DNA of 64,000 nt, taken from NCBI GenBank assembly GCA_044226015.1, contig JBGAHS010000006.1, positions 1 through 64,000 of the forward strand, given 5' to 3'. Each line of letters starts with the position of its first letter. Position 1 is the first letter of the stretch. The DNA is from Candidatus Obscuribacteraceae bacterium. Its GTDB lineage: Bacteria; Cyanobacteriota; Vampirovibrionia; Obscuribacterales; Obscuribacteraceae. Shown here piece after piece: positions 224-38,761 of this stretch. The position numbers and the translations under genes were made by a program. The notes beneath the pieces are model-generated. The model saw only the letters and a program-made list of their open reading frames with translations, ran no database searches and was not told the DNA's origin.

Positions 224-697
224 TCAGCGCGCTTTTTCGCGATCGAGCAGTTCCTCGAGAACCGTCCAGGTCATGCCGCCGAAGATGAGCAAGCAGCTGA
301 TGACGGTGCTGTGGAAGAACACCTTGAGGGCGAGCGGCACAGCGGCGCCGATGAACCAGGCGCTCGGCAAGATGACGAGTCCCGCGGCCAGGATGCATCC
401 CAGCGAGGTGACTCCGCTCGACCAGAGGAGAAACTGCTTGACGCTGAGACCGCGTTCGATCGTCAGAAGCGTTCCGACCATGAAGGCGGTGTAGAAGTCG
501 ATGAAAGCGATGCCCAGCGCGAAGCCCATGGAGCCGAGCGGGCCGAGTCCGAGGACAGAGCCGGCGACGAACTGCAGGATGAGCAGCAGCGTGAAAGCGA
601 TAGGCGCCCGATAGCCAGCCTCGCCCTTGTAGATGGCGATGACCCCTTCCAAGAAGGCGGCAGGAAGGCGGACGAGCATTTTGAGCAGATCCAACAT
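224..697 (-). CDS. Hypothetical integral membrane protein (157 aa)
   Basis: ATG with AGGA SD upstream; about 4 hydrophobic segments; co-oriented with neighbours. Confidence 0.75.
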   Translation of the reverse strand: MLDLLKMLVRLPAAFLEGVIAIYKGEAGYRAPIAFTLLLILQFVAGSVLGLGPLGSMGFALGIAFIDFYTAFMVGTLLTIERGLSVKQFLLWSSGVTSLGCILAAGLVILPSAWFIGAAVPLALKVFFHSTVISCLLIFGGMTWTVLEELLDREKAR

Positions 698-890
698 CTT
701 TGGAGTTCCTTTCTAGTTGGTGGCACCAGCGTTTGAAGTTGGCGGTGAATGTAAATTCACTAACGAATTGAGACCTGGGGCGCAGCATTGCTCGTCCCAG
801 GTCGTTTTTGCATCGACGTATTGTCGATGTGCTAGCGGATAGGTCATGTGCTTTTCCGCTTGTCGGTAGCACCGCCTTTGGTGACCATCG

Positions 891-1064
891 CTAATGAAGG
901 AGGCGCCTCCATATCTTCTTGTGTTTGGCTCTCAGGCGAAGCCCGAATTTGCCAACCATCAGTAAGACTGTGAGGAACGCCACCGTTCCATAGCGAAGAA
1001 ACCACCTTAGCGCCGCGAGATAGAACACGGCGAGCAAGGCTAAGAGCAGCCGAAGAACAAGCAT
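891..1064 (-). CDS. Small membrane protein (57 aa, MLVLRLLLALL...RRLLH), not in the ORF track
   Basis: Manual translation; AAGAAGGAG SD 6 nt before ATG; hydrophobic N-half and basic tail. Confidence 0.6.
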   Translation of the reverse strand: MLVLRLLLALLAVFYLAALRWFLRYGTVAFLTVLLMVGKFGLRLRAKHKKIWRRLLH

Positions 1065-1097
1065 GCTCGGCTCCTTCTTTATTGGGACTGAGAAAAC

Positions 1098-1931
1098 TCA
1101 GTCCAGGAAAATGTCGCGACGCAGACTCCTCGAAGGGTCTACCGCGTACTTGGTGAGGTCGTCAATGCGAGCCGCAATGAGGACTTCGCTGTCGACATAG
1201 AACTGCCCAGTGTGCTGGCGCGAGTCTTGCGTCAGAATGATATAGGCAGCGTCGGCGACGATGTCGGCAGTTCGACTCTGGCGCAGCAACTCCTGCCCGT
1301 TCGGGAAGTGAGCGACTGCCGCCGTGGCGATGAGCGTTTCCGGCCAGAGCGAATTCACAGCGATGCCCATGGGGGCAAACTCGCCGGCGAACGCCTGGGT
1401 CAGCAAGCTCATGTTGTACTTGGAAGTGGCGTAGGCAGGAAACTGCGGCAGCCACTTGCCCATGTGAGTCAGAGGCGGTGACATGGTCAGCACCTGCGGG
1501 TTGTCGCCCTTCATGAGATGGGGGAGGGCCAGCCGGGTGACCATGAAGGTGCCCTGGTGGTTGATGGCTTGCATCAACTGGTAACGCTTCGGGTCGATGC
1601 TCGCCGTGGGCGAGAGGTCGATCGCCGAAGCGTTGTTGACTACGATGTCGATGCCGCCGAATTCGGCGACGCCGGCTTCGATCGCCGCGGCAATTTGTTC
1701 GACCGTGCGGATATCGCAGACGACAGGAAGAGCCCGACCACCGCATGCACGAATTTCTTCGGCAGCACTGTGGATGGTGCCCTCTTTGCCCGCCGTCTGC
1801 TTATCGGTCTTGGCGGCGATTATGATGTTGGCGCCTTCCCTCGCGGCTCGTTTGGCGAGAGCCAGACCGATGCCACGGGATGCGCCAGTGATGAAAAGCG
1901 TTTTGCCTTTCAACGTTCTGTTCATTACCAT
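1098..1931 (-). CDS. NAD(P)-dependent short-chain dehydrogenase/reductase, HSDL2/AtuG-like
   Basis: TGASRGIG, VNNAS, YATSK (YxxxK) and NSLWP..IATAA motifs. Confidence 0.9.
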   Translation of the reverse strand: MVMNRTLKGKTLFITGASRGIGLALAKRAAREGANIIIAAKTDKQTAGKEGTIHSAAEEIRACGGRALPVVCDIRTVEQIAAAIEAGVAEFGGIDIVVNNASAIDLSPTASIDPKRYQLMQAINHQGTFMVTRLALPHLMKGDNPQVLTMSPPLTHMGKWLPQFPAYATSKYNMSLLTQAFAGEFAPMGIAVNSLWPETLIATAAVAHFPNGQELLRQSRTADIVADAAYIILTQDSRQHTGQFYVDSEVLIAARIDDLTKYAVDPSRSLRRDIFLD

Positions 1932-2007
1932 GTTTTCTGTTCCTTTCTCAGATGCTGTTAAGCACTGCTTTATTGTTTAGCTGCGCAGACTGGGCGATGT
2001 CAGGGAA

Positions 2008-2130
2008 TCACTCCTTGAACAGCCATTCGTTCAGCTTGACTGTGCCGTAGGCGATCATGGCGATGCCGAATTGCAAGCCGGCGACAAGCATGAAGGATGT
2101 CTGAGGGTTCATTTGTTCGCTGAGTGTCAT
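2008..2130 (-). CDS. Small single-TM protein (40 aa), paralog of 2411-2530
   Basis: MTLSEQMNPQTSFMLVAGLQFGIAMIAYGTVKLNEWLFKE; AAAGGAG SD; near-identical second copy. Confidence 0.75.
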   Translation of the reverse strand: MTLSEQMNPQTSFMLVAGLQFGIAMIAYGTVKLNEWLFKE

Positions 2131-2204
2131 TTTAACTCCTTTCTTTTCTCGGGTGCTGTAACGCACTGCTTGATTGTTTAGCTCCGCGCTAGGATGGCGC
2201 GAGG

Positions 2205-2327
2205 CTAGGAATTCCACTTGCCGGTGAAGAAGTCGATGACCTTGTCCGAGAACAGGACGAACAGAAACGTCCCGATCACACCGATGACGAAAACATTTCC
2301 GGGCGTCCAAAAGGTCTGTTCATGCAT
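2205..2327 (-). CDS. Small single-TM protein (40 aa)
   Basis: Manual translation MHEQTFWTPGNVFVIGVIGTFLFVLFSDKVIDFFTGKWNS; AAGGAAG SD. Confidence 0.65.
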   Translation of the reverse strand: MHEQTFWTPGNVFVIGVIGTFLFVLFSDKVIDFFTGKWNS

Positions 2328-2410
2328 TGTTTGCTTCCTTTCTTTTCTCGGGTGCTTGAAAGCACGGTTTGATTGTTTAACAGCGCAGCAGGCTGGGCGA
2401 TGTCAGGGAA

Positions 2411-2530
2411 TCACTCCTTGAACAGCCATTCGCTCAGCTTGACCGTGCCGTAGGCGAGCAAGGCGATGCTGAATTGCAAGCCGGCGATAAGCATGCAGGA
2501 TGTCTGAGGGGGCATTTCGCTGAGTGTCAT
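2411..2530 (-). CDS. Small single-TM protein (39 aa), paralog of 2008-2130
   Basis: MTLSEMPPQTSCMLIAGLQFSIALLAYGTVKLSEWLFKE; AAAGGAG SD. Confidence 0.75.
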   Translation of the reverse strand: MTLSEMPPQTSCMLIAGLQFSIALLAYGTVKLSEWLFKE

Positions 2531-2565
2531 ATTAGCTCCTTTCTTTTTGCGGTGCCGAGGCACTG

Positions 2566-3447
2566 CTAGTTGAGAAAGGTCTCGCTCGCGTGCTCGATGA
2601 TTTTGCGCATGCGAATGAGACCGGCTAGATAGAGAGCAGCTGCCTTCTCGCCGACTTCGCGGTGATTCGAGTCTGGCAGCGAGATGAACAATCGCCGCGA
2701 CGCACGAGTGCGAGCGCTGCCGAAATTCTCCTCGCCGTGATGGAAAGGAATGGTTTCGTCTTGTTCAGCGTGCACTACCAGCAGCGGATGCAGCCAGTCG
2801 CGCAATATGCTTCGAGTATCCAGCTGATTGCTGGGATGCAGAAAGCCCGGGAATATGCGCGTGAACGGCACATGCTCGCGACCGATGTCAGCCAGCGATG
2901 TGAACGTGTTGCGCAGGACGAGCCCAGCCGGGTGTCTGTGTTTGCAGACATAGCTGGCGACGCCACCGCCGAGCGATTCGCCTACGATGAGGATTTCCTC
3001 GGGGTCGTATCCGAGTTTCTCGAAAGCGTAGTCGAAGAAGGCGAGCCCGTCTTGACACACTGAAGTGATGGACGGCAGCGGTCCTTTCGTTTCGCCGAAG
3101 CCTCGATATTCACCGATGAACACCGCGTAGCCCGCCGCCAGAAGGCGTTCGACTTCGTCGATGCAATTGGAGATGCTCGAGCCGCGACCCACATAGTAAA
3201 TCGCAAGCGTGCCCTTGAGCTTGTCGCTGCGACCGAAGAACCATGCATTCATGGCTCGTCCATCGATGCTGCGAACCGCGTGCTGAACCTTGTGAATCCA
3301 CGGGAACTCACGCACCACGTTGGGGTCAGATTTCCTTGCGGTCTTGTCGATGAAGATGCGCCGCCGGTAATACCACTGTCCGAAGCGCGGGCTCGCGGCG
3401 AGGTACAGCAGCACGATAACGCAGCCGACTGCATATGTCGTTTGCAT
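2566..3447 (-). CDS. Membrane-anchored alpha/beta hydrolase (ABHD13/17-like)
   Basis: N-terminal TM; EYRGFG; nucleophile elbow GESLGG; HAEQDETIP; C-terminal His. Confidence 0.88.
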   Translation of the reverse strand: MQTTYAVGCVIVLLYLAASPRFGQWYYRRRIFIDKTARKSDPNVVREFPWIHKVQHAVRSIDGRAMNAWFFGRSDKLKGTLAIYYVGRGSSISNCIDEVERLLAAGYAVFIGEYRGFGETKGPLPSITSVCQDGLAFFDYAFEKLGYDPEEILIVGESLGGGVASYVCKHRHPAGLVLRNTFTSLADIGREHVPFTRIFPGFLHPSNQLDTRSILRDWLHPLLVVHAEQDETIPFHHGEENFGSARTRASRRLFISLPDSNHREVGEKAAALYLAGLIRMRKIIEHASETFLN

Positions 3448-3483
3448 TGTCTACTCCTTGCTTTGCTGACCAGGAATTCCTTC

Positions 3484-3822
3484 CTAGCGCTTTCCTTGAT
3501 TTTTTTTGACTTCAGCCCAGAAACTTGTCGACCAGTCGGTCGGCTTTTTCTGGACTCGAGCCATTCTCGCTTTCGAGCTTTCGATCGCGATGTCGAGCAG
3601 CTCTTGTCCTCGCGGAAGATCCGCAAGCGAGCAACTCCACCTGACAGTGCTGTCGCCGATTTTGCCGACGGTAGCAGTCCAGCTCGATGAAAGTTTCTGG
3701 TCGGCTCCGTCGAGCAGCTTGAGCTCGATGATTTGACCCTCGAAGTCTCCGTTTCGAATGGTGATTCGATTCACCTTGCTGAGCAAGCGCTGTGCGAGGT
3801 GAGATTTTGGATGTTTAGACAT
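3484..3822 (-). CDS. Hypothetical protein (112 aa)
   Basis: ATG with GGAAGGAAG SD; fills the gap between co-oriented genes. Confidence 0.65.
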   Translation of the reverse strand: MSKHPKSHLAQRLLSKVNRITIRNGDFEGQIIELKLLDGADQKLSSSWTATVGKIGDSTVRWSCSLADLPRGQELLDIAIESSKARMARVQKKPTDWSTSFWAEVKKNQGKR

Positions 3823-3938
3823 TTGTCTTCCTTCCGATGTAAACTTGAAGACCCGTCGTAGACACAGTCAGCCGACGGGTCTTCGTGATTGCGAGGACCG
3901 GCCCTGGTCTGGGCTCGATCTCGTTACAGGTGTGGCGC

Positions 3939-5594
3939 TTAATTGGCGCTCTTGTGATTCTTGGACTTGAGGAAGTCCAGCGCGCTGTTGACTTGCGCGT
4001 CATTGGGCTTGTAGTACTGCGCGTCGAGCGGTTCTTCCACGACGATTTCGGGCTTGACGCCGTTGCGATGCTTGTAAGCGTCGCCAGGCCACTGGCCGTC
4101 CTTCAGGAAGTAACGCCCGATGGTGACCGAGAGTCGCGTGTAGTTCGGCGCAGGACCGTTGGCTTGTTCGATGCCTTTGCCGAAGCTGAGCTCGCCGATG
4201 AGAGTCGCACCTTCGAAGTGATTGTGTTCTTCGTCGATGATGCGATTCTGCGACAACGCGCCAGCTGTAACCTCCGACGCTGACGCACTCATGCCATTGA
4301 TGAGCACCACCATCGGTGGCAGTCCTTCAATGAAGGGAACGTCGATGTCGGCGCTCTTCTGCTCGAAGGTTTTTCCGTCGACCCACGATTTTGTAACCGT
4401 GACCCGCTGAGGCTTCGAGACCTTTCCAGTGCTCTCGTCGCGGACGCTGCGGTAGAGAGCGCCATTCTTGCGTTCCCAGGTCACCGTCTGGTAACGAGGA
4501 TTGTCCGGCGAACCAGTAATGCGTTCGCGGCTGCTCACGAGCACGCCGTTCTTCACGTTGTAGGAAGCCGTGAACACAGCCTCATCCCAGAGACCGCCGC
4601 CATTGTTGCGCTCGTCGATGATGATGCCACGCGCACCGTTGTCACGCAGACCTTCGAGCAGCTGCAGCATTTTGCCGCTGACGCCCTCGCTCCACGTGTT
4701 GACGATAATCGAGTAGTATCCATCGCCGAGGTCTTTCAGCCAGACGGGTTCCGAAGGAACGTTGCCACGAGTGACAGTGCGTTCGTATTCGGTGTCGCCC
4801 CGCTTCAAGGTCAGCTTGACGCTCGTGCCAGCCTTGCCCATGAGCAAGTCTTTGATGACGTGGTCGAAGTTGCCACCCAGCACGCTCTGCCCATCGACCT
4901 TGATGAGCTGATCACCGTCGGCGATACCAGCCTTTTCGGCAGGACCGCCGCCGACAACATGGTAGATGTTTCCCGTGAACTCGAATTGCGGCTCGTGAGG
5001 CTTCCCGTTATCGAGCGGTGCTGCCATCGTGCGAGAGCGATCGATAGAGAAGAGCAGCCCGACGCCTTCGATTTGCGACATGTTCGCCAATCGGGCAGTC
5101 ATCGCCTTCGCGTCCTGGGGAGGCAGGACATGCGTCCACGGGTCGTCGAAGGCATCGGCGAGGCGCTTGTTGACGTAGTCGAGCGTCTCTTTGAGTTCGA
5201 CTCCCTTCGGGCAAGATGCCTGCGCCGACTTCAGGTTGAGCTTGCGAAGCCCCTCTGCGTCGTAGGTGCGCATCGCGATGTCGGAGAGAAACTGGCGACA
5301 GAAGTTGTCGCTGAAGCCATCCATCCATTCATCGAAATAGCGCCCGCGAATCGACGGGTCTGCTTCCGACATGCGTTCCAGAAAGAACGGGTCGGTGAGC
5401 AACTGCTTCTTTTTCTCGTCGCTCAGCGCATGGAATTGATTTCCTCGAGCTTCATCGAGAGAAATCGTGAGCCGACCCGACTGTGCGACAGGCACCTGTC
5501 GAAGGCTCTGAACATCTCGCTGACCCCACGGTTGTGTGGCCAGCAGAGCGAGCGCCGCAGCTGCCGCTACGACGATCGTCAATTTTTTCAACAT
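3939..5594 (-). CDS. S41 family C-terminal processing peptidase with PDZ domain
   Basis: Signal/TM N-terminus; PDZ (GGPAEKAGIADGD); IDERNNGGG; SASASE (Ser); SFGKG (Lys); GVKPEI. Confidence 0.92.
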   Translation of the reverse strand: MLKKLTIVVAAAAALALLATQPWGQRDVQSLRQVPVAQSGRLTISLDEARGNQFHALSDEKKKQLLTDPFFLERMSEADPSIRGRYFDEWMDGFSDNFCRQFLSDIAMRTYDAEGLRKLNLKSAQASCPKGVELKETLDYVNKRLADAFDDPWTHVLPPQDAKAMTARLANMSQIEGVGLLFSIDRSRTMAAPLDNGKPHEPQFEFTGNIYHVVGGGPAEKAGIADGDQLIKVDGQSVLGGNFDHVIKDLLMGKAGTSVKLTLKRGDTEYERTVTRGNVPSEPVWLKDLGDGYYSIIVNTWSEGVSGKMLQLLEGLRDNGARGIIIDERNNGGGLWDEAVFTASYNVKNGVLVSSRERITGSPDNPRYQTVTWERKNGALYRSVRDESTGKVSKPQRVTVTKSWVDGKTFEQKSADIDVPFIEGLPPMVVLINGMSASASEVTAGALSQNRIIDEEHNHFEGATLIGELSFGKGIEQANGPAPNYTRLSVTIGRYFLKDGQWPGDAYKHRNGVKPEIVVEEPLDAQYYKPNDAQVNSALDFLKSKNHKSAN

Positions 5595-5595
5595 C

Positions 5596-5715
5596 TTAGT
5601 TTCCTTTCTTTTTCTTGTTCTTCACGCGTACTGGAACCGGTTGAGCTTGCGAGCGATTGCCCAGCAAACCCAGCAGCCCGAGTGCGCCAAGAAGTCCGAT
5701 TAAGCCAGGTGTCAT
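5596..5715 (-). CDS. Small TM peptide with basic tail (39 aa)
   Basis: MTPGLIGLLGALGLLGLLGNRSQAQPVPVRVKNKKKKGN; AAGGAG SD; stop abuts the S41 start. Confidence 0.55.
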   Translation of the reverse strand: MTPGLIGLLGALGLLGLLGNRSQAQPVPVRVKNKKKKGN

Positions 5716-5805
5716 TTTTGACTCCTTAGTATTCTCATGCCGGCGGACCACGTATCCGCAAGCATATTCTTGTGATACTGCACGTGGTGCAGAGTCTCTG
5801 CTTTG

Positions 5806-5961
5806 TCAGAACGACCAAAAGCCCTCACTTGCGTTTTTGATCAGTTGGGATTCGACAATCGCCGCTTGTGACGAAACGAATTGTGCAACGGCATTGCTGA
5901 GAAGCAGCGCCGCCGCAAAGAAGCAGATGATGAAAACGGCACGAATGACCGTCTCCTGCAT
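5806..5961 (-). CDS. Small membrane/exported protein (51 aa)
   Basis: Manual translation MQETVIRAVFIICFFAAALLL...EGFWSF; AGGAGAAGGG SD. Confidence 0.55.
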   Translation of the reverse strand: MQETVIRAVFIICFFAAALLLSNAVAQFVSSQAAIVESQLIKNASEGFWSF

Positions 5962-5992
5962 TTTCCCTTCTCCTTTGCTCTTAAGCTGGGTT

Positions 5993-6292
5993 TCAACGGC
6001 TCGTGCGAATCTGGTGGAATTTCACAAGTGTGAAGCAGATCGCGCAGGAGATTGAAACGAAGCCCATTGGCGTTCCCCAGCTGAAGTAAGCCAGGACGTA
6101 GCCAGGCAGAAAGGAGGCGACGATGTAGATGTCGCTCAGGGTGCTAAAAAAGTCTCCCGTTCTGTTCGAGAAATTTATCAGGATGTATTCAGCAAGCCAG
6201 AACAGGAAGAACGGCAAGATGAACCCGATGATGACGCCGACGAGGATTTGTGCGTTGGCGGTGTCGGATATGGTGCTGAGGCATTCGTTCAT
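5993..6292 (-). CDS. Membrane protein (99 aa), paralog of 6363-6689
   Basis: Three hydrophobic segments; shares IGFILPF, SFLPGYV, WGTP and CA.(F/Y)TLV with its neighbour. Confidence 0.75.
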   Translation of the reverse strand: MNECLSTISDTANAQILVGVIIGFILPFFLFWLAEYILINFSNRTGDFFSTLSDIYIVASFLPGYVLAYFSWGTPMGFVSISCAICFTLVKFHQIRTSR

Positions 6293-6362
6293 TTGCTTTG
6301 CTTTCGCTTGCGTTGAGCTCTCTAAACTTTGCGCTTAGATTTCCCTCTAACGCGCTCCTTTG

Positions 6363-6689
6363 CTAGACGGCGCCGTCGCGTTTCTTGAACTCGTTGCGCA
6401 TGACCAGCGTGTAGAAGATCGCGGCGCAGAGAGCTCCTACCGAAATGGGAGTGCCCCATTTGAGAATTGCGGTGACATAGCCCGGGAGAAACGATCCCAA
6501 AACCAGGGTCAGACCGATGATGGCGGTGGCGTCGCTGTTTTTTTCGGAACAGCAGGTGAAAAGCATTCCCAGCCCCATCATAGCGAAGGGCAGGATAAAG
6601 CCGATCGCAATGCCGCAGAGGAAGTCGGCGGCGGTCGGATTGGCCAGAACATTTGCGTATGCGATCATCGCGTCCAAAAATGTATTCAT
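6363..6689 (-). CDS. Membrane protein (108 aa), paralog of 5993-6292
   Basis: Same shared motifs as 5993-6292. Confidence 0.78.
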   Translation of the reverse strand: MNTFLDAMIAYANVLANPTAADFLCGIAIGFILPFAMMGLGMLFTCCSEKNSDATAIIGLTLVLGSFLPGYVTAILKWGTPISVGALCAAIFYTLVMRNEFKKRDGAV

Positions 6690-6773
6690 CTTATAGCCTT
6701 TCGTTTTCTTGTGTTGAGTTCGGCGCGGAATTGCGCCGAACTCTCTCTTACTGCGAAATTCGCAGTTGCTCGA

Positions 6774-7820
6774 TCAGAGACCAGCAGGACGCGGGCAGGC
6801 GCCGCCGTTCATCTTCTCGAGTTCCACGACGCGATCCGGAATCGGCGGATGGTCGTAGTGAAGCTCGGTCCAGAGCTTCTTCAGCTTGGCGATGAAGCCG
6901 CCGTCCTTCGGCTGCTCTTCGACCGTTGTCGCGTCGAACATCGGGTTGATGATGATCGCGTGATTCAGCGACGCCCAGAGAGCCTTCTCGCGCTGCGTCT
7001 GCGGACGATGCGTTTCGACGAACTTGGCGAGCTTCAGCAGACCGGTCGCCAGAGCGCACGGGTTCTGCGTGAACTCCGCGCCCAGTGCGTCGGCGCCCGA
7101 CTCGCGAGAGCGAACCACGAAGAGCTGAACGATGCGCATCAGCTGCTGCGCGACGTAAAAGATCGCATTGGAGATGATGGTTCCGACAATCGCCGGAAGC
7201 AACTTCTTGTTCTCCAGACCGACCGGACGCTTGATCACCTTGATCATCGAGACCCAGCCGTCGACGACAGCCGCGAAGATCTGGAAGAAGAGCGTCGAGA
7301 ACACGCCGAAGAGCGAGTTGATGCCGACGTCGCCGTTCTTGACGTGAGCGAGCTCATGCGCAAGAACGCCTTCGATTTCGTCGTCCGTCATGCCCATCTC
7401 CGGGTCGAGCAGTCCAGCCGTGATGGCGATGACCGCGCGAGCGGGGAAGGGTCCGGTGGCGAAAGCGTTCGGCAGCGGATTCGGCGCGAAGTAAACCGGC
7501 GGCATGTGCGTCAGCCCGGTCTTGGGCATGAGGCGCTCGACGATCGGATAGACGCGCTTGCCCTCGGCGCTCTCGCGATCGAGCGGGATGGATTTCGTGA
7601 TGTAGAGCGAAATCTTGTCCGAGAACATCCAGCTGAGCACGCCGATCAGCGGATAGAGCAGCCAGAATCCCGCCTGGAAGCGGAAGCTGAAGCCCGTCGC
7701 CCAGAAGGCGATCCACATGAAGGCGCCGAGAAGGGCGAAGCCGCCGATCGTCTGCAGCCAGGTTTGCATGCGGCGGTGCTTGATGGCGTCGCCGTCCACA
7801 TTGCGAATATTCTGAGTCAT
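6774..7820 (-). CDS. htpX: M48 zinc metalloprotease, HtpX-like
   Basis: PNAFATG, TAGLL, GVLAHELAHVKNGD (HEXXH), RSRESGAD, HPP..DRV; start set at MTQNIRN after AAAGGA. Confidence 0.9.
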   Translation of the reverse strand: MTQNIRNVDGDAIKHRRMQTWLQTIGGFALLGAFMWIAFWATGFSFRFQAGFWLLYPLIGVLSWMFSDKISLYITKSIPLDRESAEGKRVYPIVERLMPKTGLTHMPPVYFAPNPLPNAFATGPFPARAVIAITAGLLDPEMGMTDDEIEGVLAHELAHVKNGDVGINSLFGVFSTLFFQIFAAVVDGWVSMIKVIKRPVGLENKKLLPAIVGTIISNAIFYVAQQLMRIVQLFVVRSRESGADALGAEFTQNPCALATGLLKLAKFVETHRPQTQREKALWASLNHAIIINPMFDATTVEEQPKDGGFIAKLKKLWTELHYDHPPIPDRVVELEKMNGGACPRPAGL

Positions 7821-7973
7821 CTTGTTTCCTTTCCTGTTGATAAAGAGTCGACTCTGAGCCAATCTCAGAGTCGACATGTTGAACTCAGTTGACTTTCGGT
7901 CAGGCGCAGTGCGTCTGACCTGCAAGAGTGATAGCCGCACTTTCGCTGAGAACTCGCCCGTGGGCGAGCTCTT

Positions 7974-13204: not shown

Positions 13205-13228
13205 CGGGTTGCTTGCTCTCTCTTCTGC

Positions 13229-30382: not shown

Positions 30383-30398
30383 CTTTCTGGCGTTTTGA

Positions 30399-30854
30399 TC
30401 AGTGGTGCAGCGGCTTCATCAGAAAAATGCCGTATTCGATAGCGACGAACATGGCATTGAAGACGAGCAGCGACAGCCAGAGCGGCAAACCGCTGTTCTC
30501 GCTGCGAACCAGTTTCACCGCGCCGAATTGATCGACCTGGCGAATTCCAGCGAGAGTTGCGACATCGGCGGCACCGCCGAAGACGCACCACGCCAGACCG
30601 ACAAAGAAGATCGCCGTGGCGCTGACGTAGAGGTCCCAGGTGACCGCCGCCCAGCTGAGCTGAAAGAAGATCGTCGCGCCGTAAGCGAGCCCGAACGATG
30701 CGATCGACATGACGAACGCGGTGCCGAAATAGTGCGTGTAGCTGCGCGAGATGAAATTCGTCAGGGCGCCGCTGATGACGGGCTTCTTGACGAAGTGATT
30801 TTCGGCAGCTGCGATCAGTGCGACAGTGATGACGAGAATGGCAAGGCTATCCAT
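30399..30854 (-). CDS. Membrane protein (151 aa)
   Basis: AAGGAG SD; four TMs. Confidence 0.72.
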   Translation of the reverse strand: MDSLAILVITVALIAAAENHFVKKPVISGALTNFISRSYTHYFGTAFVMSIASFGLAYGATIFFQLSWAAVTWDLYVSATAIFFVGLAWCVFGGAADVATLAGIRQVDQFGAVKLVRSENSGLPLWLSLLVFNAMFVAIEYGIFLMKPLHH

Positions 30855-30969
30855 CTTTCTAGTCTCCTTTTGGTTTCCGGACAAGAGCCATGATGCTGTA
30901 AACTGCACCATTGGTGGTGACCATGGCTCACGAATTGAGTGGCGCTCAATTCATCAACCATGCATCAAA

Positions 30970-31406
30970 TTTCAGCTGGGCATGAGCGCCCAGCTGATTT
31001 GTGAGAATGACGAGTTGATCAGTCGCGGCTGCGCTGGCACTGCGCGCACTGGGCGCACTGGGCGCACTGCGCGACCGCCGTATCGATGCCGGACTTGCCG
31101 CGAATCTTCGCAAGAGCGATCTGACCGACCTTGCCGACGACGAACACGGCGAGCATCAGACCGGTGATGATGAAGGCGGTCACGATGGCGCCTTCGCTGT
31201 CCATCTGCTGGGCGACGGAGAGGGTCGGGTCGATGGCGGGAATGTCAAAGTTCATGTTCATGCTCCTGTTTCTCTGTTGGACTGCAGCAAATGCTGCTCG
31301 ATAAGAACTACTGTGATTCTCATCGAGCAGAATTTGAAATTTGCTAGCGACTTTCATCAAGCTGTTTGCGTTTCAGCTGGGCATGAGCGCCCAGCTGATT
31401 TGTGAG
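30970..31406. repeat. Identical 36-bp direct repeat containing a hairpin (30970-31005 and 31371-31406)
   Basis: TTTCAGCTGGGCATGAGCGCCCAGCTGATTTGTGAG occurs twice. Confidence 0.9.
31019..31255 (-). CDS. Single-TM protein with a C-terminal (AQC)4 repeat
   Basis: AGGAG SD; TM segment; ...VAQCAQCAQCAQCQRSRD. Confidence 0.65.
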   Translation of the reverse strand: MNFDIPAIDPTLSVAQQMDSEGAIVTAFIITGLMLAVFVVGKVGQIALAKIRGKSGIDTAVAQCAQCAQCAQCQRSRD

Positions 31407-31429
31407 GATGAGGGGATCGCCCGTGGTGC

Positions 31430-31933
31430 TCAGTCTTTTCCGAGCGCTTTGCGGATGTGATGCTGAAGCTCAGCGCCGCTCAGCTTGGTCGACGGAGTGC
31501 ATCCGCGCAAGGAGCGCTTGGTTCGCTCGCGGCGCGAAAGCTGAGGCTGGTCCGTCTCGATCGTTTGCGAAGCGGGGAATTGCGCCGCAGGCTCGCGACA
31601 TTGCGACGTGAAGAACATCGATTGGCGCGCCGCTTCGATGTCCTCATCGTCGAGCGCACGCAGTTCGCGTTCCTTCTGTCTGTTGCGATGGTCGTTGTTC
31701 CATTCGCAGTTGCTGTCGTCATTCTGGCGCCACGCCTTGTTGCCAGCGAATCTCCCGCGAATTCGTTTCAGCTTGCCGTTGGAAAGGCTGCGAAAACGCT
31801 TGCTGCGGGACACCCCTCTCAGAGTGGCATTGTCGTCCGGTTCGTCCAGATGAACCACGCCCGCCTCGAAGAGGTCTTCGAGGAGCCAGGTGAGGTCTTG
31901 GTTGCGGCCAGGGACATCTTGCAGACGAGTCAT
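31430..31933 (-). CDS. Arg-rich basic hypothetical protein (167 aa)
   Basis: AAGGAG SD before MTRLQD. Confidence 0.65.
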   Translation of the reverse strand: MTRLQDVPGRNQDLTWLLEDLFEAGVVHLDEPDDNATLRGVSRSKRFRSLSNGKLKRIRGRFAGNKAWRQNDDSNCEWNNDHRNRQKERELRALDDEDIEAARQSMFFTSQCREPAAQFPASQTIETDQPQLSRRERTKRSLRGCTPSTKLSGAELQHHIRKALGKD

Positions 31934-32181
31934 TTTTTCTCCTTGACGAAGATTCATTGTGTGCTGGTTAGGAAGGCAAGATTGTCTTCCTATATATTGT
32001 TGGAATCTTGCTTCAGATCTTGTTGGCGAGCCAACGAAGAATCGGCACGAACAGGGGCACGCAGACTGCCGCCGTCAGCGCTGTTTTATAGAACAGTTCC
32101 CACATGAAAAATTCTCCGATTGTTGAGTGGTGGCACTATGCCACCACCCATTCTTGTCGCGTGAGTGCTACGCGATGGAAC

Positions 32182-32355
32182 TCAGCCGAAGAGCTTGAAG
32201 CCGCCGATGACCGCCGCAGCGAGACCGCCGAGAGTCAGGATATTGGCGAGACCTTCGATTCCCTCGTTGCGGGTGCGGTAGGCGACCTGTCCGACGAAGA
32301 CGGAGACGAACATGGCAGCCAGACCGCCGACGAAGAGCTTTTCCGGAGTCAACAT
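32182..32355 (-). CDS. Small 2-TM protein (57 aa)
   Basis: MLTPEKLF...; AAAGGA SD. Confidence 0.68.
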   Translation of the reverse strand: MLTPEKLFVGGLAAMFVSVFVGQVAYRTRNEGIEGLANILTLGGLAAAVIGGFKLFG

Positions 32356-32434
32356 GTGTGTGTTCCTTTCTCTTATCCGCAACGTGAGAGAACCGCTATT
32401 GCCGCGGACTGAGCAATAGGCTGGTTGTTCACTA

Positions 32435-32932
32435 TTAGCCCCTCAGGTTGAAGGGCTCGGTGCCGACTGGCACGTGAATGCGGTAGCGAACAAGTGCGCC
32501 TTCCGGCTCACTCGGGCGCCCCCACTTATACTGCCAGCAAGAGGTGTCGTAGACTGCGACGACATCGGCAATAATAGCCGTCGCTTCCAGATTCTCGTCA
32601 GCGATGATTTCAGTCAACGCGACGGGTATGAATACTTCGTCGTATGTCCCCTGGTCGGCGAAAGCTCGCACAATGAAGTCATCGTGCAGTCGAGCAATCA
32701 AGCCGCGAGTATTTCGTTCTTCGTCACGAAATGCTTGCAAACGCCTGCCGGGCTTCTCGCGTTCGATCATCTTGATCGAACGTCCGATGAAGAGGGACAC
32801 CGCGAGTCCGAGTGCGGAACCGGCCCAAATGCAGCCCACGCCGATGAGCATGGTCTGAACCGAGTGACTCGACGGTACAAGCAGGAGGAAGCTGAGCGCA
32901 CCGAGGATGGTACCAGCGATAATGCTGAACAT
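32435..32932 (-). CDS. Membrane-anchored hypothetical protein (165 aa)
   Basis: Two N-terminal TMs; AAAGGA SD. Confidence 0.7.
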   Translation of the reverse strand: MFSIIAGTILGALSFLLLVPSSHSVQTMLIGVGCIWAGSALGLAVSLFIGRSIKMIEREKPGRRLQAFRDEERNTRGLIARLHDDFIVRAFADQGTYDEVFIPVALTEIIADENLEATAIIADVVAVYDTSCWQYKWGRPSEPEGALVRYRIHVPVGTEPFNLRG

Positions 32933-33110
32933 ATGTGTTCCTTTCGAACTGTAGACTTAGCTGCTCTCACAGCTTGAGCCATGTTAGATGCTCCAGGCAT
33001 CAATTGTGACCATGACTCATGGCTGGCGAAGTGCGCCAGGCATGAAGCATGCATCTTTCTAGAGAATAGTGGTGGCACCATAAGCGCCACCACCTTTTTT
33101 GCTGAGTTGC

Positions 33111-35411
33111 TCAGTGCTTTTTCTTCTTATGCTTCTTCGGCGCCTGTTCGGTCGGAGTTGCCGAGGAAGGAAACTCCGAAGCCAGATTCAGGAACGCCGG
33201 AGGCGGCGGCGAGTAGACTTCGACCTTGGGAGCCGGAGCTTCGACCTTGGGAGCCGGAGCTTCGACCTTGGGAGCCGGAGCTTCGACCTTGGGAGCCGGA
33301 GCCTCGACCTTGGGAGCCGGAGCCTCGACCTTGGGAGCCGGAGCCTCGACCTTGGGAGCCGGAGCCTCGACCCTGCGAGCCGGAGCCTCGACCTTCGCAG
33401 GTTTCGGCTGCGACGCTTCCTTCCGAGCAAGTTCGTCAGAGTCTTCCTTCTGAAGCAGCTGGTCGATCTCATCGGCGGTCTTCACCTGCACCGGATGTTC
33501 GGCGTGCGCATCGAAGAGCACGCCGTTTGCAAATCCGTGATTCTTAGTCACGTTCGTTTGCATCAGCGCGGTGAGCCAGTGAATCTTTCCGGTCTCCGAA
33601 ACGACCAGCATGGCGCCGTTCAGTTTCAGATAGTTCTGACCGGGAAGAACACTGGAAACATTCGCGATGATTTGAGCGGGACCAGGCAGGTCATGCTCGT
33701 TCTGCGATTTTCCATCCGGGTAGTAGATCTGAAGGTCGCCCGTGACGCGATCGCTCAGTCCGATGGCCTTCAACGCGGTGGCGCTGGTGCCCTTCGGCTC
33801 GAACGGAATTACGCCGTAGATGCCCGTCGAGAACGACTGATAGGTCGGATAGAGATTGTCCTCCGGCTTGTCGCTGTCCGAGATTTCGAGCAATTCGCCC
33901 GACCACTGGATAGCAAACATGCTGCTGTTGTCCGCCCAGAGCTGGGCATATTGCCGAGCCAGTGCGGTGGGGAAGAGCGGCACTCCGGGGAAGCGCTGGG
34001 CAGCCATCGACGGAAGCATGTCGACGATATGACCAGACTCGGAGACAACCATGACGCCCGAGAGAACGGGAATCATGCCGCCCCATTGCAGACTCCAGCT
34101 GGTGTAAGGCACCAAGAGGTAGTTGTCACCGCCCACGGTGCGACCGATGATAGCCGGTTGCATCTGTCCGAACGGATGCCGAAGAGCGAACGCTGCCTTC
34201 AGCACCGGGCTGTGTTCGCCATAGACGAACTGCACCGGAACCGTCGAGCTGAACCGTCCTGTCTTGCCGCCGTCGACGAGGATGACCCCTTCGATGCCGC
34301 TTGCAGGGTAGGTCAGAACGTGGTTCTGCACGCGAGTCGGAACGCGCATGCACTCCCAATAGATGCGCTGGCGGTCGCCCTTGTCGTTGAGAAAGATCGG
34401 ACGCGGGTTGGGCAGCAGATTGGTGAATGCCATATCATTGGCATCGCCGCAGTAGTCGGGAACGGTGACCAGAGGCAGAATGCGATGCGCCCCCGGAGTC
34501 GACTGCGGAAGGCGGTCGATATGGGTGACGCGAACCGCGTTCGCCATCTGATATTTGTAGAGCCATTCCGTGTTGTTCGCGATATAGAACCACGCGCAGA
34601 AGAGCAAACTCACAGCCGACGCCGCGATGAAAGTCTTGTGCGAGCGATGCGGAAGCTCGAAGGTCGAGCGATCCATATAAGCGAACACTGACAGTGCGAC
34701 GCCCACGGAGATCATGACGGCGGCACCCAGATAGGAGTGCGTCGGCATGAAGAGGATGACGAAGAGAAACGACATGACGGGCGTTGCCCACCAGTGGTTG
34801 CTCTCGTCACCGCTCGGAGCCCTGAGCGTGGCGAATCCTTCGACAACCAGCGCGAAGAGGGCGAACACGATCGGGGCGAATCTGGCGAACTGGAAGGTAT
34901 AAGGCTGCACCGCTGGCAGTATCGCCGTCAGAATGAAGCCGTAGGACCAGAACAGCACAAACCCGAGAACGACCGGCGCGAAGAAAGCAAAGCTCCAACG
35001 AAAGAAGGAGCCCAGCTGCTGCGGCACGGCGAAGGAGCGCCCGAAGATGTGAATCTCGGAGGGTTCCAATTCGTCATGCGACCAGGCGCGACGCACGAGT
35101 TCCAACCCGAGCAGCACAGCGATGCCGCCAGCGCCGATGGCGAAAGCGGACGGTTCGCTGAGGAAGAGAAGGAACCATGAAACGACGACGCCGGTGACCC
35201 ACGCGGTGCGGTGCTTGTAGTCCTTGAAGTAGAGGAGCACAAGTCCGACGACAATGAGAAGTCCGGCGTCGTACCAGACTGGCACGAATCGCGCGAGCGT
35301 GAAGAAGGTCCACGCGAGGGCGAAGCCAACGGCGGTTTCTTCGATTTTGAACAGGACCATGCTCACGAAAGCCGAGGCTTTAGCGAGCAGCGAACTGATG
35401 GTGTTCCACAT
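33111..35411 (-). CDS. Large polytopic membrane protein with an extramembrane domain and (KVEAPAP)n tail (766 aa)
   Basis: About 9 N-terminal hydrophobic segments, a roughly 400-aa soluble domain, Pro/Ala/Lys/Glu repeats, basic C-terminus. Confidence 0.85.
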   Translation of the reverse strand: MWNTISSLLAKASAFVSMVLFKIEETAVGFALAWTFFTLARFVPVWYDAGLLIVVGLVLLYFKDYKHRTAWVTGVVVSWFLLFLSEPSAFAIGAGGIAVLLGLELVRRAWSHDELEPSEIHIFGRSFAVPQQLGSFFRWSFAFFAPVVLGFVLFWSYGFILTAILPAVQPYTFQFARFAPIVFALFALVVEGFATLRAPSGDESNHWWATPVMSFLFVILFMPTHSYLGAAVMISVGVALSVFAYMDRSTFELPHRSHKTFIAASAVSLLFCAWFYIANNTEWLYKYQMANAVRVTHIDRLPQSTPGAHRILPLVTVPDYCGDANDMAFTNLLPNPRPIFLNDKGDRQRIYWECMRVPTRVQNHVLTYPASGIEGVILVDGGKTGRFSSTVPVQFVYGEHSPVLKAAFALRHPFGQMQPAIIGRTVGGDNYLLVPYTSWSLQWGGMIPVLSGVMVVSESGHIVDMLPSMAAQRFPGVPLFPTALARQYAQLWADNSSMFAIQWSGELLEISDSDKPEDNLYPTYQSFSTGIYGVIPFEPKGTSATALKAIGLSDRVTGDLQIYYPDGKSQNEHDLPGPAQIIANVSSVLPGQNYLKLNGAMLVVSETGKIHWLTALMQTNVTKNHGFANGVLFDAHAEHPVQVKTADEIDQLLQKEDSDELARKEASQPKPAKVEAPARRVEAPAPKVEAPAPKVEAPAPKVEAPAPKVEAPAPKVEAPAPKVEAPAPKVEVYSPPPPAFLNLASEFPSSATPTEQAPKKHKKKKH
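33218..33395 (-). repeat. In-frame 21-bp tandem repeat (about 8.5 units) encoding KVEAPAP
   Basis: GGAGC(T/C)TCGACCTTGGGAGCC repeated. Confidence 0.95.
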
Positions 35412-35833: not shown

Positions 35834-36784
35834 TTAATGACGATGCTTGCCTTTCGTCTTAGACTTCGGCATCGCCGGAGTCAAAGGCGATTTGTCACGC
35901 TCTGTTGAAGTGGTCGGCGCTGTAACCAGTGGCACCGGTGACGGTGTCACTGTCTGCTGCGCTTCATCCACCGGGCGATATTCATGGGATGGAGAAGCGG
36001 CGTCGACCTTCTTGGGCTCAGTCGCTTGATAGATGTTGCTGACCAGCGGAGAAGGGGGTGTTTTCTTTTGCGGATGGCTTGCAGCAGCAATGATGGCTCC
36101 AATCACTCCAATAATTAGAATGATGCGTGCCCAAGCTATGAGCTTAGCCTCCCTTTTCTCCTTCTGCGCCTTTTTCTGCTTTTCCTTTTGCAGCCGGTCC
36201 CACGCATTCCACCGCGCCCGTTGTGCCTGGGCTTCTGCATTCTCTTTCTGCCGTTTGGCGTTGAGAGCTTCTCCGGCAAGAAGAATGAACTGGCGTATCA
36301 GCTCAAGCTGCTGGGCTAAGTTGTAACCTTTGATCTTCTGCTCAAACTCTTCCCATGGGTCGTTGAACGATGGTCCCTGCTGATAGTGAGCTTGTCCTTG
36401 CCAATGATGATCGTGACCGCTGGCGCCGTGCTGCTGTCCCGCATTGCGAAACTCGTGCTGATCAGGGCGCCGTTGGTTGGGCCCATTCGTGTGCGCATGA
36501 GCGCCGGCGTGATATGCGCTGTGTTCATGAGCTTGCTGCGAAGCTCTGCTCGTGCGCGGCGGAGCGCACTGATAAGATTTCCAGTATTTGAGCAGCTCGT
36601 CTTTCGCGTTATTGATTTCCGCAAGACGTTCATCGGCTGCTTTCTTTTTTCTTGTGTCGGTGATCTTGTCGGAGTGATTCCTTTTAACAAGGCCTCTGTG
36701 CGCGGTTTTGATTTCGCTCTCGCTAGCTCCCGGCGAAAGACCGAGGATGGCGTAAAGCGCATCATAATCGATGATGTTAAACAT
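35834..36784 (-). CDS. J-domain-like (DnaJ class C) membrane protein with HSD in place of HPD
   Basis: LYAILGL...ASESEIKTAHR.LVKRNHSDK...EINNA.D.L; C-terminal TM and Pro-rich tail. Confidence 0.85.
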   Translation of the reverse strand: MFNIIDYDALYAILGLSPGASESEIKTAHRGLVKRNHSDKITDTRKKKAADERLAEINNAKDELLKYWKSYQCAPPRTSRASQQAHEHSAYHAGAHAHTNGPNQRRPDQHEFRNAGQQHGASGHDHHWQGQAHYQQGPSFNDPWEEFEQKIKGYNLAQQLELIRQFILLAGEALNAKRQKENAEAQAQRARWNAWDRLQKEKQKKAQKEKREAKLIAWARIILIIGVIGAIIAAASHPQKKTPPSPLVSNIYQATEPKKVDAASPSHEYRPVDEAQQTVTPSPVPLVTAPTTSTERDKSPLTPAMPKSKTKGKHRH

Positions 36785-37236
36785 CGGTTGTCTCCTTCTA
36801 GATGACTGGGCGTCATCGCAGTTGCATGTACCGACGCTCAGGCGTCTTTGTCAGGGTTTCTGCAAGGTCTGCATGATGCGTATATTCGCAAACTAAGATG
36901 TTCAAATCTGTAGATGAAGGTTTTGCTAATAAAAAGGGCAAAAACCAGCAATAGGACTTGCTGGCTGTGATATTGAATTGCGATTGGAAACGTTAGTGTT
37001 TGATGGAAATTGCTCGATGTAATTGTGCGAAAGATGATGTTTATAATCTAGCGAAATCTTCTCTCGTTTCAAAATTTTGGCTGCTTGGAGTCGCACTCCA
37101 AAAGTGCCATGAATACAGGAAAGTTTCGATGGCTAGTTAGCAGCTTCGTAATCTTACTAGAGAAAAATGATGCATGAAGGCTCTGCGATTTTATAGCATG
37201 CTGCGCTAAGCGTGACACTAGATATGGTGGCGCTAT

Positions 37237-37277
37237 AAAAAGACCACCGGACAATCAAAAATTGATTGTCCGGCGGT
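37237..37277 (-). terminator. Rho-independent terminator
   Basis: Minus strand ACCGCCGGACAATCAA-TTT-TTGATTGTCCGGTGGT followed by CTTTTT. Confidence 0.75.
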
Positions 37278-37430
37278 TGCAAGGTAATTTACAGAAGGTA
37301 CGATTACAATAACGAGACATGCGTGAATTCGCTGTGAAAAATTTTGCTCGATTTATTGACTAATCGTTCCTATATAAAGGAACGAAAAACGGGCTGGGTG
37401 CACAATTATGCAGCATCCAGCCCATATCTT

Positions 37431-38441
37431 TTAGTTCACCTTCCAACTTGCGGTGCCCAGCACAACGCCGTCTCCATTGGTGTCGCTGACCAGTGCTTCG
37501 ACGAGGTGAGTGCCGTCGCTGCTGACTCGAGTCTTTGAACTCTCGCAAACAGCTGTGAGTTTCCCCTCGCCGCTCCCGAGAAACTTCATGGAGAACCCGG
37601 TGAGGATACTCCGCGAACCCGGCGCCAATTTGTAGTTCAGCGCAAGTCCGGTCGACATTTCGATCAAGTTCATCAGCGCGGCCGGATGGGCGTGACTCGC
37701 GTCATCCCATTTGACACTGCCGACTCTCCAGGTGAAAGTGCCATACGCGACGACTTCGTTCTCGGAGTCGTAGATCGTACACGGCACTTCATGTTGTCCT
37801 CGACCTGGTATGCTGACGCCCTCGCAGACAGCACGCAGTCTTCCGCGAGCTTTCTTGATATACCGAATATTGAACGCGTGGAAGCGAGCAAAATCATTCG
37901 GCCGCGCTGCGGTTACTGCAAGGCGTGTGCATCGGAACATAAGTGTGACGAGAGCCGCCGCGTGAACGCTATTGAGATGATTGCAAACCTCGGAAGTCTG
38001 CTCCATCTCGTAAGCTGTACGCAGGTGCGTGAGCAAGAGAGTGTTTGCAGCGATGCTCCAATCATACTCATCGCGAACTGCACGCGATTGACCCATTGAG
38101 ACAATGCAAGCAGCGGAGTCGAGTCTCTCGACGGTCGCCCCGATACTGCCGGAGTAAGGCGCCATGTAGCCGATGAATCTGCTGAAGAGCTTCCGGCCGA
38201 AAGGAATGTGCGAGCACACGCCGAACATCGTGCGAATCAATTTGCCGACGTCGCCGCTCTTCTTCGTGGATTTCTTCTTCGGTTCTTTCTGTGGCTGTTC
38301 GTAGGGGAGGCACTGTTTGCGGTGCCAGCCCGTTATCGGTAGACCGCAGCGAGCGCAGTGATGCTCTCGCTCAAAATGAGAGTGAAGCGGAACTTGTGCT
38401 CCGCGTTCGGAACTCTCGGTATGACGAATGGTATCATCCAT
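37431..38441 (-). CDS. Hotdog-fold thioesterase (PaaI/DUF4442-like), partly duplicated, with an N-terminal Cys/His motif
   Basis: APYSGSIGA.V, NHLNSVHAAAL, YIKKARG.L.A; second HPAALMNL.E..TGLA; N-terminal CARC..H..C. Confidence 0.75.
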   Translation of the reverse strand: MDDTIRHTESSERGAQVPLHSHFEREHHCARCGLPITGWHRKQCLPYEQPQKEPKKKSTKKSGDVGKLIRTMFGVCSHIPFGRKLFSRFIGYMAPYSGSIGATVERLDSAACIVSMGQSRAVRDEYDWSIAANTLLLTHLRTAYEMEQTSEVCNHLNSVHAAALVTLMFRCTRLAVTAARPNDFARFHAFNIRYIKKARGRLRAVCEGVSIPGRGQHEVPCTIYDSENEVVAYGTFTWRVGSVKWDDASHAHPAALMNLIEMSTGLALNYKLAPGSRSILTGFSMKFLGSGEGKLTAVCESSKTRVSSDGTHLVEALVSDTNGDGVVLGTASWKVN

Positions 38442-38482
38442 TTAGAGATCCTTTCTGGTTCGTTTCTTCTGTCTTGCTCTGC

Positions 38483-38761
38483 TTACCAGTAGCCAAGCCA
38501 GCGAAAAGGCATGAACTGCCGATAAAGCATATACATGGCGTAGGGCGCGAATAGGCTCGACTGCATGACGACTGCCAAAAATTTCCAGCCTTCGATGACA
38601 TTTGCAGTTGAGACACTTCCGCACAGTGGTGGTGAAAACGTGTACGTCAGTGCCGGTGACGCTGCGAAGATGCTGTCATACGGAACCCATTCCGTGTTGA
38701 ATGCAGGCATCTGACCGAACATCCACGTAGTCGAGTGTCTTGGAATTTTCTGTGTGGTCAT
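38483..38761 (-). CDS. Hypothetical protein (92 aa)
   Basis: AAAGGA upstream; aromatic-rich; first gene of the minus-strand array. Confidence 0.5.
   Translation of the reverse strand: MTTQKIPRHSTTWMFGQMPAFNTEWVPYDSIFAASPALTYTFSPPLCGSVSTANVIEGWKFLAVVMQSSLFAPYAMYMLYRQFMPFRWLGYW

Follow-up and report, generated by a model that had tools for sequence, protein, structure and literature searches.

The window analysed here is the 64,000-nucleotide start of a 644-kb contig (C9) of an Obscuribacterales bacterium, a non-photosynthetic relative of the cyanobacteria whose genome (G000; 8.19 Mb, 47% GC) is assembled in 13 contigs; other G numbers denote genomes of relatives. A 32-nt piece of its 16S gene had exact matches in 3 records, every one of them labeled Obscuribacterales or Obscuribacteraceae. 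Its left part holds a block of minus-strand genes in which membrane proteases lie among enzymes of acyl-lipid metabolism and many small membrane proteins. An earlier note, made from the sequence alone, had described about 50 consecutive minus-strand genes, and the gene caller confirmed this with 49 genes, all on that strand, from 224 to 38096. In score-filtered calls no other same-strand run in the genome was as long (45 genes in the block, versus 34 in the ribosomal-protein run); under a geometric model 2e-6 runs of such length were expected. The same note gave the extent as 224 to 38761. The one-strand run agrees with this; however, the compositional island ends at 35411, and the open reading frame (ORF) at 38483-38761 was not called. 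The island edge is fuzzy, with a GC content at third codon positions (GC3) of 0.56 in the J-like gene and 0.62 in the HotDog gene. The coordinates of all features are collected in Table 1.

Pfam agreed with the families named earlier for 16 genes: S41 with PDZ, M48, M50 with PDZ, AAA with M41, two Band_7, DnaJ, patatin, two acyltransferases, AMP-binding, acyl-CoA dehydrogenase (ACAD), enoyl-CoA hydratase (ECH), SDR, alpha/beta hydrolase, and the HotDog family DUF4442. Catalytic motifs, checked against standard family patterns, were intact in FtsH, HtpX, RseP, the S41 protease, the patatin, both acyltransferases, the ligase, the hydrolase, and the SDR. HtpX carries HExxH with the additional E, RseP carries HExxH and NxxPxxxLDG, and the S41 protease (Ctp) has its catalytic Ser and Lys motifs. 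The GVSGG of the patatin and the NHGSMLD and NHQVPAD of the acyltransferases fit GxSxG and NHxxxxD, respectively. The FtsH is divergent, because its score of 355 is below the equivalog cut-off of 600. The assignment of a J-domain protein held in part: there is a Pfam DnaJ match, but the HPD motif is absent and HSD stands at residue 37. Among the 33 unnamed genes, 23 have at least one predicted transmembrane (TM) segment and 16 at least two, as judged by hydropathy only (the value for small genes across the genome being 26%); this bears out the more than 20 TM proteins of no known family that had been reported. The reported absence of uppS, cdsA, and dxr was likewise found, none being matched by Pfam among the 48 scanned proteins.

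The unnamed 766-residue protein at the right end of the island, referred to below as the 7-TM marker, was present in 37 of 65 genomes of the family and in 0 of 155 other genomes of the taxonomic class. It had no Pfam or NCBIfam match and no PDB fold match at E<=0.001, and in the Atlas it fell in hypothetical clusters only, for which cluster look-ups yielded no useful names. At E<=0.001 it has 269 distant unnamed relatives. Its structure was predicted with confidence (pLDDT 77) and gave one fold match, to an unnamed viral protein (E 2e-14).

Table 1. Features of the block and their positions in the window
Feature	Position	Strand
Core of block: GC 0.576, GC3 0.76, 47 same-strand genes, strong Shine-Dalgarno (SD) sites, spacer hairpins	1..35411	-
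75-nt spacer repeat; 92% match, found only here and at end of C8	95..170	
Multi-TM unknown; paralog (38%) ends C8	224..697	-
SDR, PRK08278 subfamily, above cut-off	1098..1931	-
Three tandem ~40-aa single-TM genes; strain-variable copy number (joints 1987-2536, 1991-2197)	2008..2563	-
Alpha/beta hydrolase, nucleophile motif GESLGG	2566..3447	-
S41/PDZ carboxy-terminal protease; N-terminal anchor; motifs SASASE, GKG	3939..5594	-
Two paralogous small TM proteins, 33%	5993..6689	-
HtpX (M48); HELAH, ESGAD; 50% to core htpX of G000	6774..7820	-
Lipid operon, five genes (numbered in transcription order)	7974..14359	-
Lipid operon gene 1: acyltransferase	13229-14359	-
Lipid operon gene 2: patatin	12002-13135	-
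Lipid operon gene 3: acyltransferase	11089-11931	-
Lipid operon gene 4: ECH	10028-11002	-
Lipid operon gene 5: acyl-CoA ligase	7974-9902	-
Two small soluble unknowns; both matched in G002 cluster	14502..15211	-
RseP (M50+PDZ); HEGGH, NLVPLPILDG; 22% to core rseP	16392..17603	-
Run of small unknowns, mostly 3-4 TM	17629..21664	-
Divergent FtsH; Walker A/B, HELGH, third zinc ligand intact; two TM segments; Obscuribacteraceae-only clade	22868..25141	-
Small Cys-rich protein; weak 2Fe-2S ferredoxin match, below cut-off	25572..25877	-
ACAD	26109..28124	-
SPFH tandem pair, 62% identical (28320-29231, 29292-30236)	28320..30236	-
Further small unknowns, mostly with TM segments	30399..32932	-
Unnamed marker protein, 766 aa, ~7 TM helices, beta-rich outer domain, Pro-rich repeat tail	33111..35411	-
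J-like domain protein, HSD replacing HPD; block edge	35834..36784	-
HotDog-fold DUF4442 thioesterase-like protein; block edge	37431..38441	-

The block probably runs on beyond the left window edge into contig C8 (713.8-734.8 kb), for a total of about 57 kb, because the C8 segment has the same strand and composition as the window block, the last called gene of C8 is a 38% paralog of the window gene at 224, the 75-nt repeat is shared, and a 610-nt contig in two sequencing runs is compatible with a C8-C9 join across an implied gap of about 185 nt. The C8 end adds M4 proteases, DUF502, an ABC transporter, DUF6986, and a thioesterase.

The earlier suggestion that the proteases are divergent second copies of core genes proved correct, as core copies were located elsewhere in G000: ftsH at C6:179.5k, htpX at C6:522k, rseP at C8:258k, and ctp on C3 and C9. 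In a quick tree, built with one third of the outgroups and with long branches flagged, the island FtsH was placed with other family sequences in a 7-member clade (SH-aLRT 99), grouped by genus and separate from the core copy. An FtsH alignment scan of a 1/64 sample of the collection returned canonical FtsH only, and these sequences were reused as outgroups and codon controls. The closest relative of the island htpX was the single core htpX.

Clustering of proteases with lipid genes, for which a synteny check had been proposed, recurs across genera. Same-strand clusters in the relatives share the divergent FtsH, S41, the 7-TM marker, patatin, and ACAD, in shuffled order. In whole-family tables, where kin are not independent, 16 of 24 genomes had an island-type ACAD no more than 20 kb from a listed FtsH or from the 7-TM marker; nine of the 16 belong to one genus, and five genera are represented in all. 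Of the 77 marker matches, 14 (in 13 of 50 genomes) had an FtsH at most 20 kb away, compared with 0.95 expected genome-wide and 5.2 expected within a 1.2-Mb domain. Hand-picked loci with island families in new orders are G002:C154, G006:C15, G065, G092, G082, and G114, together with G106, G109, G112, G050, G089, G058, and G113. The clusters of the relatives add rhomboid, PrsW, S49, PepO, OpdA, thiolase, FadJ, and a malate synthase-isocitrate lyase fusion; the fusion gene of G114 (L216:13423-16350) adjoins an ACAD-thiolase-FadJ and protease cluster. Relatives of the lipid-operon patatin were found in 7/7 same-genus and 14/24 family genomes, and a scan of named genomes with the patatin gave no match. 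Within G000, full paralogous lipid operons lie at C6:649-655k and C1:1172-1179k, with partial ones elsewhere, and the gene family at 18004 and 18863 has four further copies at C6:644-648k, beside a lipid operon. The proposal of one dedicated system stands only in part: clustering recurs, but gene order is shuffled between genera, the lipid operon is usually without proteases in same-genus relatives, and htpX is closest only to the core htpX. We conclude that the block is part of a module and gene class that are real, present family-wide, and so far undescribed.

That class comprises about 200 genes with a GC3 of 0.76 that have strong SD sites, are separated by spacers with hairpins, and hardly ever overlap, and the block is its largest piece; genome and ribosomal genes have GC3 values of 0.45 and 0.46. 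When genes of at least 90 aa with GC3 of at least 0.65 were counted, within region borders drawn after the data were seen, 148 lay at C6:390-853k and the C1 end and 49 in the C8-end/C9-start block; the remaining 4982 genes contributed 7. Overlaps between same-strand neighbours numbered 0/149 in the class versus 11.6% of 3247, and 1/46 in the island, where the single case was due to an over-long start call. The sequence AAAGGA, which fits the 16S tail of the host itself, preceded 21.6% of class genes versus 2.5%; TAAGGA was not enriched. Starts were ATG in 193/197 class genes, and TAG stops made up 14% versus 33%. The median folding z-score of class spacers was -4.5 versus -0.9 (mononucleotide shuffles), and 26/35 island spacers had z < -2. 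The idea that most hairpins are intrinsic terminators was rejected, a U-tract being present in 2/35.

All A-ending codons are avoided, with weaker avoidance in 47 of the 48 control loci matched for GC, and class genes follow the host in both replication-strand skew and avoidance of GGCC. The codon usage of the island was nearest to class genes of G000, G002, and G041 (distance 0.048-0.050); the best of 63 control loci was at 0.073, GC-rich Proteobacteria at 0.07-0.09, and host ribosomal genes at 0.198. Growth-type high expression was rejected as an explanation, since the ribosomal genes lack the class codons. In comparison with G002, 0.50 of 2519 four-fold sites differed in the class (13 genes) and 0.69 of 2133 in core genes (15 genes), giving distances of 0.92 and 1.98, with a GC content at these sites (GC4) of 0.75-0.78 in the class on both sides. 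Against G006 the gap was small (1.46 for class versus 1.55 for core), and the class pairs there are possibly paralogs. Because GC4 is kept, host skew and GGCC avoidance are present, A-ending codons are avoided, and island codons are nearest those of class genes, these data favor long-term residence of the class, with silent sites that appear to be selected rather than decaying.

Other members of the class are PrkA (two copies)-DUF444-SpoVR, two MoxR-vWA-DUF58 operons, three more S41 proteases, two more FtsH, a serpin, PLD, beta-oxidation genes, nucleoside salvage genes, a ferritin-like protein, catalase-peroxidase, and M4 proteases. The Pfam scan covered 110 class and nearby genes; the rest, at C6:395-600k, were named by inspection of the sequence only. 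The PrkA pair, DUF444, and SpoVR stand in tandem at C6:665-674k, and in the four relatives that allowed both PrkA genes to be placed they lie near dnaA; GC3 of PrkA2 exceeded that of PrkA1 in 5/5 genomes seen, so that the codon-bias rank is conserved. Parallel vWA-TPR-vWA-MoxR-DUF58 operons of the same codon class, each ending in S41 proteases, were seen at L012:5314-14737 and L013:1924-9832. No sigma-factor gene was found in the class regions of G000, and sigma70-consensus promoters were not in excess before class blocks. A SigF-like class promoter, TAGGGTG, was discarded when it failed on held-out sequences. The motif TAGGGTGAG lies upstream of 18/147 origin-domain class genes (G000 C6 and C1), not in the island or the relatives, and may be a local regulator site. 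An array of 19 tRNA genes at C10:356333-358584 has many UNN anticodons and includes a Ser(TGA) tRNA, of which the assembly yielded no second gene.

The class has a preferred chromosomal position. GC skew flips at dnaA in G065, G091, and G041 and on C6 of G000. In the three near-complete relatives, 56/70 divergent FtsH, S41, and patatin copies were in the origin-proximal quarter versus 3/35 canonical copies, with score cut-offs set at gaps after the tables were seen and SPFH excluded. Class genes are finely interspersed with core genes around yidC-dnaA-dnaN. PrkA lies at 0.04-0.13 of the replichore and rplN at 0.75-0.78; the ribosomal protein cluster is thus far from the origin in G065, G091, and G041. 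The window block is the exception. Because the skew of C9, a contig that carries tRNAs and a terminus-like skew peak, peaks near 178 kb, the block is placed on the lagging strand at a distance of about 140-200 kb from the terminus. At four-fold sites its A/T ratio (0.37) matches lagging-strand class genes (0.42) versus leading-strand ones (0.22); core genes gave 1.13-1.21 (lagging) and 0.67-0.70 (leading). The terminus-side block was likely moved or received en bloc, with the class normally residing around oriC.

To the right of the island, a 36-nt tandem repeat at 39368-39879 separates it from two giant plus-strand ORFs (40408-55665 and 56096-64000) of about 5000 aa each, and assemblies break at the repeat. 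The two ORFs are Gly-rich with strong GC skew, and neither had a Pfam match at E 0.01. No tRNA genes were found in the window.

The reading that we prefer, with a probability of about 0.42, is that the block belongs to a chromosomal, family-wide module of active-looking second-copy proteases and lipid enzymes, serving a starvation or differentiation program in which the cell dismantles and recycles its own membrane. It builds on the observed enzyme families, motifs, linkage, layout, position, and composition; from these we infer that the block is co-expressed and what it is for. Inner-membrane proteases such as FtsH, HtpX, RseP, and rhomboid act on proteins of the membrane in which they are seated, not on outside food; the membrane dismantled would therefore be that of the expressing cell. 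FtsH, HtpX, and RseP (with rhomboid, PrsW, and S49 in relatives) would strip inner-membrane proteins, organized by the SPFH scaffolds, while S41 would trim periplasmic proteins. The patatin and the hydrolase would free fatty acids and the ligase would activate them, after which the two acyltransferases might re-esterify them or ACAD and ECH (with thiolase, FadJ, and the glyoxylate-shunt fusion in relatives) might burn them. PrkA and SpoVR are resting-state genes. In an AT-leaning genome, tRNAs for A-ending codons are the first to lose charge, and the strong SD sites, U-tract-free hairpins, and avoidance of A-ending codons could represent tuning for heavy translation under a non-growth tRNA supply. 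There are partial parallels: in Myxococcus, membrane phospholipid passes into lipid bodies while surface area drops by 87% (PMC4048283), and mycobacteria are described as having a codon-biased dormancy regulon (PMC5114619).

Several observations weigh against recycling of the cell's own membrane. The lipid operon is not a fixed member, since four same-genus loci are GC3-high with no protease beside them; the island htpX is not a fixed member either, and several of the 19 marker loci viewed had no nearby protease. The 7-TM marker was not found in 28/65 family genomes, including the complete G041, and only 3/33 unknowns were matched in 3.85 Mb of loci fetched from other genomes; such rapid replacement of small orphan genes would fit conflict or mobile DNA equally. 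The same cluster has host-like codons in G065 (GC3 0.50) and G092:C5, and the dialect is therefore not required everywhere. No class-wide promoter motif was found, TAGGGTG being upstream of 1/50 island regions and 1/281 regions of relatives. Starvation alone gives no reason for clustering at the origin; moreover, symmetric inversions preserve distance to the origin neutrally, and rplN also keeps its position.

Four other explanations were considered. The block lies at contig ends and its GC content is 10 points higher than that of the host, as might be seen if DNA of a GC-rich organism had been joined to a host contig in assembly or binning. This we regard as extremely improbable and largely refuted: the DNA was present in a bioreactor run, which may be its source, and in a 2016 activated-sludge run of another study (0.96 of sampled words), depth was even across the right edge (X1, 11.4-12.3 versus 11.2; X2, 12.1-12.9 versus 9.0-9.9 for long contigs), a single 6137-nt contig spanned 33343-39479 in both runs, and blocks paralogous to it occur away from contig ends, on C6 and in relatives assembled as one contig. 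The same depth, equal to that of the flank, spoke against the separate element for which a coverage check had been suggested, and the idea of giant-plasmid or jumbo-phage cargo was not supported: the block is chromosomal and without phage hallmarks, no integrase was found at either edge, and the FtsH lies in a family-only clade that follows genus. A subtler version, in which the blocks are relics or recurrent inserts of a GC-rich Obscuribacteraceae mobile element that settled near oriC long ago and whose blocks are swapped among kin, would make clustering a matter of descent rather than of one host program. The phage-like layout on one strand without overlaps, the tandem small orphans, the long branches, the shuffled order, the different sites in same-genus genomes, the host-like codons of some lineages, and the viral protein sharing the predicted marker fold all suit it, and megaplasmids can hold three FtsH and three HflK/C-like genes (10.1101/2025.09.30.679422). 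We nevertheless consider it unlikely. Capsid, terminase, replication, and partition genes were absent among 48 plus 110 proteins searched with Pfam and 70 searched with PHROGs, where the only structural-type rows were two weak tape-measure matches, of one coiled-coil protein. Neither Rep nor Par was matched among the scanned window and class proteins, and no relatives were found in viral contigs or phage records. The silent sites look constrained, the FtsH subtree follows genus, and near yidC-dnaA-dnaN class genes are interspersed with core genes. As to an integron cassette array, the spacer hairpins are unlike one another in sequence, and no spacer repeat family running through the island was present among the 20 largest repeats listed. 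Three tyrosine-recombinase matches, two with stops, lie at C8:676-685k, about 29 kb past the far block edge.

The remaining two explanations concern life on other cells. The class might be switched on in the bacterium's own cell during digestion of prey or dead biomass, for lipid and peptide import, membrane rebuilding, and a growth burst. Peptidases, lipases, beta-oxidation genes, and transporters for peptides and nucleosides abound in the class, and origin-proximal genes gain dosage during replication. FtsH, HtpX, RseP, and rhomboid, however, act within the cell's own membrane, and the ribosomal genes are far from the origin and lack the codon dialect, so that the class is not tuned like growth genes. 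Although the cultured Vampirovibrio of the same class is a predator (PMC4451040), we regard a feeding program as possible rather than probable. A bolder proposal, and to us a quite improbable one, is that Obscuribacterales are predators that kill by gene delivery, the origin-centered class of about 200 genes being a phage-like takeover genome within the chromosome. The order's core VirB4-VirD4-relaxase module would move block DNA into GC-rich prey; there the prey ribosomes would produce the proteases, lipases, and small membrane proteins from strong ribosome sites, stabilizing hairpins, and prey-style codons, and the victim's own products would dissolve its membrane. G000 has a chromosomal operon at C10:63035-70685 encoding a VirB4-like protein, a 215-aa unknown, a VirD4-like protein, and Replic_Relax, a domesticated conjugation module; the VirB4 model PF03135 had no match in 5 genomes, and a TraG/TraC-type ATPase was present. 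The VirD4-like gene and relaxase are single-copy in 63/65 family, 2/2 sister-family, and 0/153 other class genomes. Such delivery would account for the predominance of inner-membrane and cytoplasmic enzymes and for codons nearer to GC-rich Proteobacteria than to host ribosomal genes, and DNA transfer into prey has been proposed for Vampirovibrio (PMC4451040). Against it, no oriT was mapped, the module lies at a distance from the class (at 0.73 of the replichore in G065) and also occurs in genomes where the marker was not found, the class lies on both sides of dnaA, sigma70-consensus promoters are not in excess, and the enriched SD sequence fits the host 16S tail. The module could instead move blocks among kin, which would explain the shuffled order and the terminus-side copy.

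Comparison with known systems sets the block apart. The TLPQC locus, or locus of heat resistance (LHR), of Pseudomonas clone C and Enterobacteriaceae likewise carries second-copy FtsH and HtpX beside core versions, and its FtsH2 peaks in late stationary phase (PMC7685784). The block, in contrast, has no ClpG, small heat-shock protein, thioredoxin, KefC, or DegP; no small heat-shock protein or Clp disaggregase of the dna-shsp20-clpG core unit was found among the window and C8-end proteins. It also has no mobile flanks or tRNA site, none having been found at the block, where transposases were not searched for separately. It adds lipid catabolism and many small TM orphans, is restricted to one family, and is part of the class of about 200 genes. 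The enterobacterial pMEGA megaplasmids share several FtsH and HflK/C-like copies, non-host composition, and rearranged order; they are free AT-rich replicons with partition genes (10.1101/2025.09.30.679422), whereas the block is chromosomal, GC-richer than its host, and constrained at silent sites. By the tests run, the block is not a phage, a plasmid, an integron, or a TLPQC locus. If the preferred reading of membrane recycling holds, the lipid-body program of Myxococcus xanthus would be alike, with phospholipid released and re-esterified or burned in shrinking cells; no comparable clustered, codon-distinct locus was seen in the accessible part of PMC4048283. Mycobacterial persistence genes likewise have codon choices unlike growth genes and tied to a resting state, but their bias is mainly in single codons (ACG) (PMC5114619), whereas here all A-ending codons are avoided with a GC3 shift of 0.3. 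Chromosomal conjugation-type parts are likewise found in Vampirovibrio and, as type IV secretion, in Patescibacteria, bacteria that live on other cells (PMC4451040, PMC12102498); Patescibacteria mostly lack a relaxase (PMC12102498), whereas Obscuribacterales keep a single-copy Replic_Relax, beside the coupling protein in G000. No paper on this gene class and no account of life cycle or morphology was found in the literature searched on Obscuribacterales and Obscuribacter, subscription papers being mostly outside that search.

Obscuribacterales are common in sludge and lakes, and the origin-centered, codon-distinct class with its membrane-demolition module gives a handle on a hidden stage of their life, whether resting, feeding, or attack. 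The 7-TM marker, the divergent FtsH clade, and the core relaxase are concrete probes for it. Composition-based binning may lose such DNA from genomes that are scored as complete. Delivery of the class into prey, if true, would be a new mode of bacterial predation.

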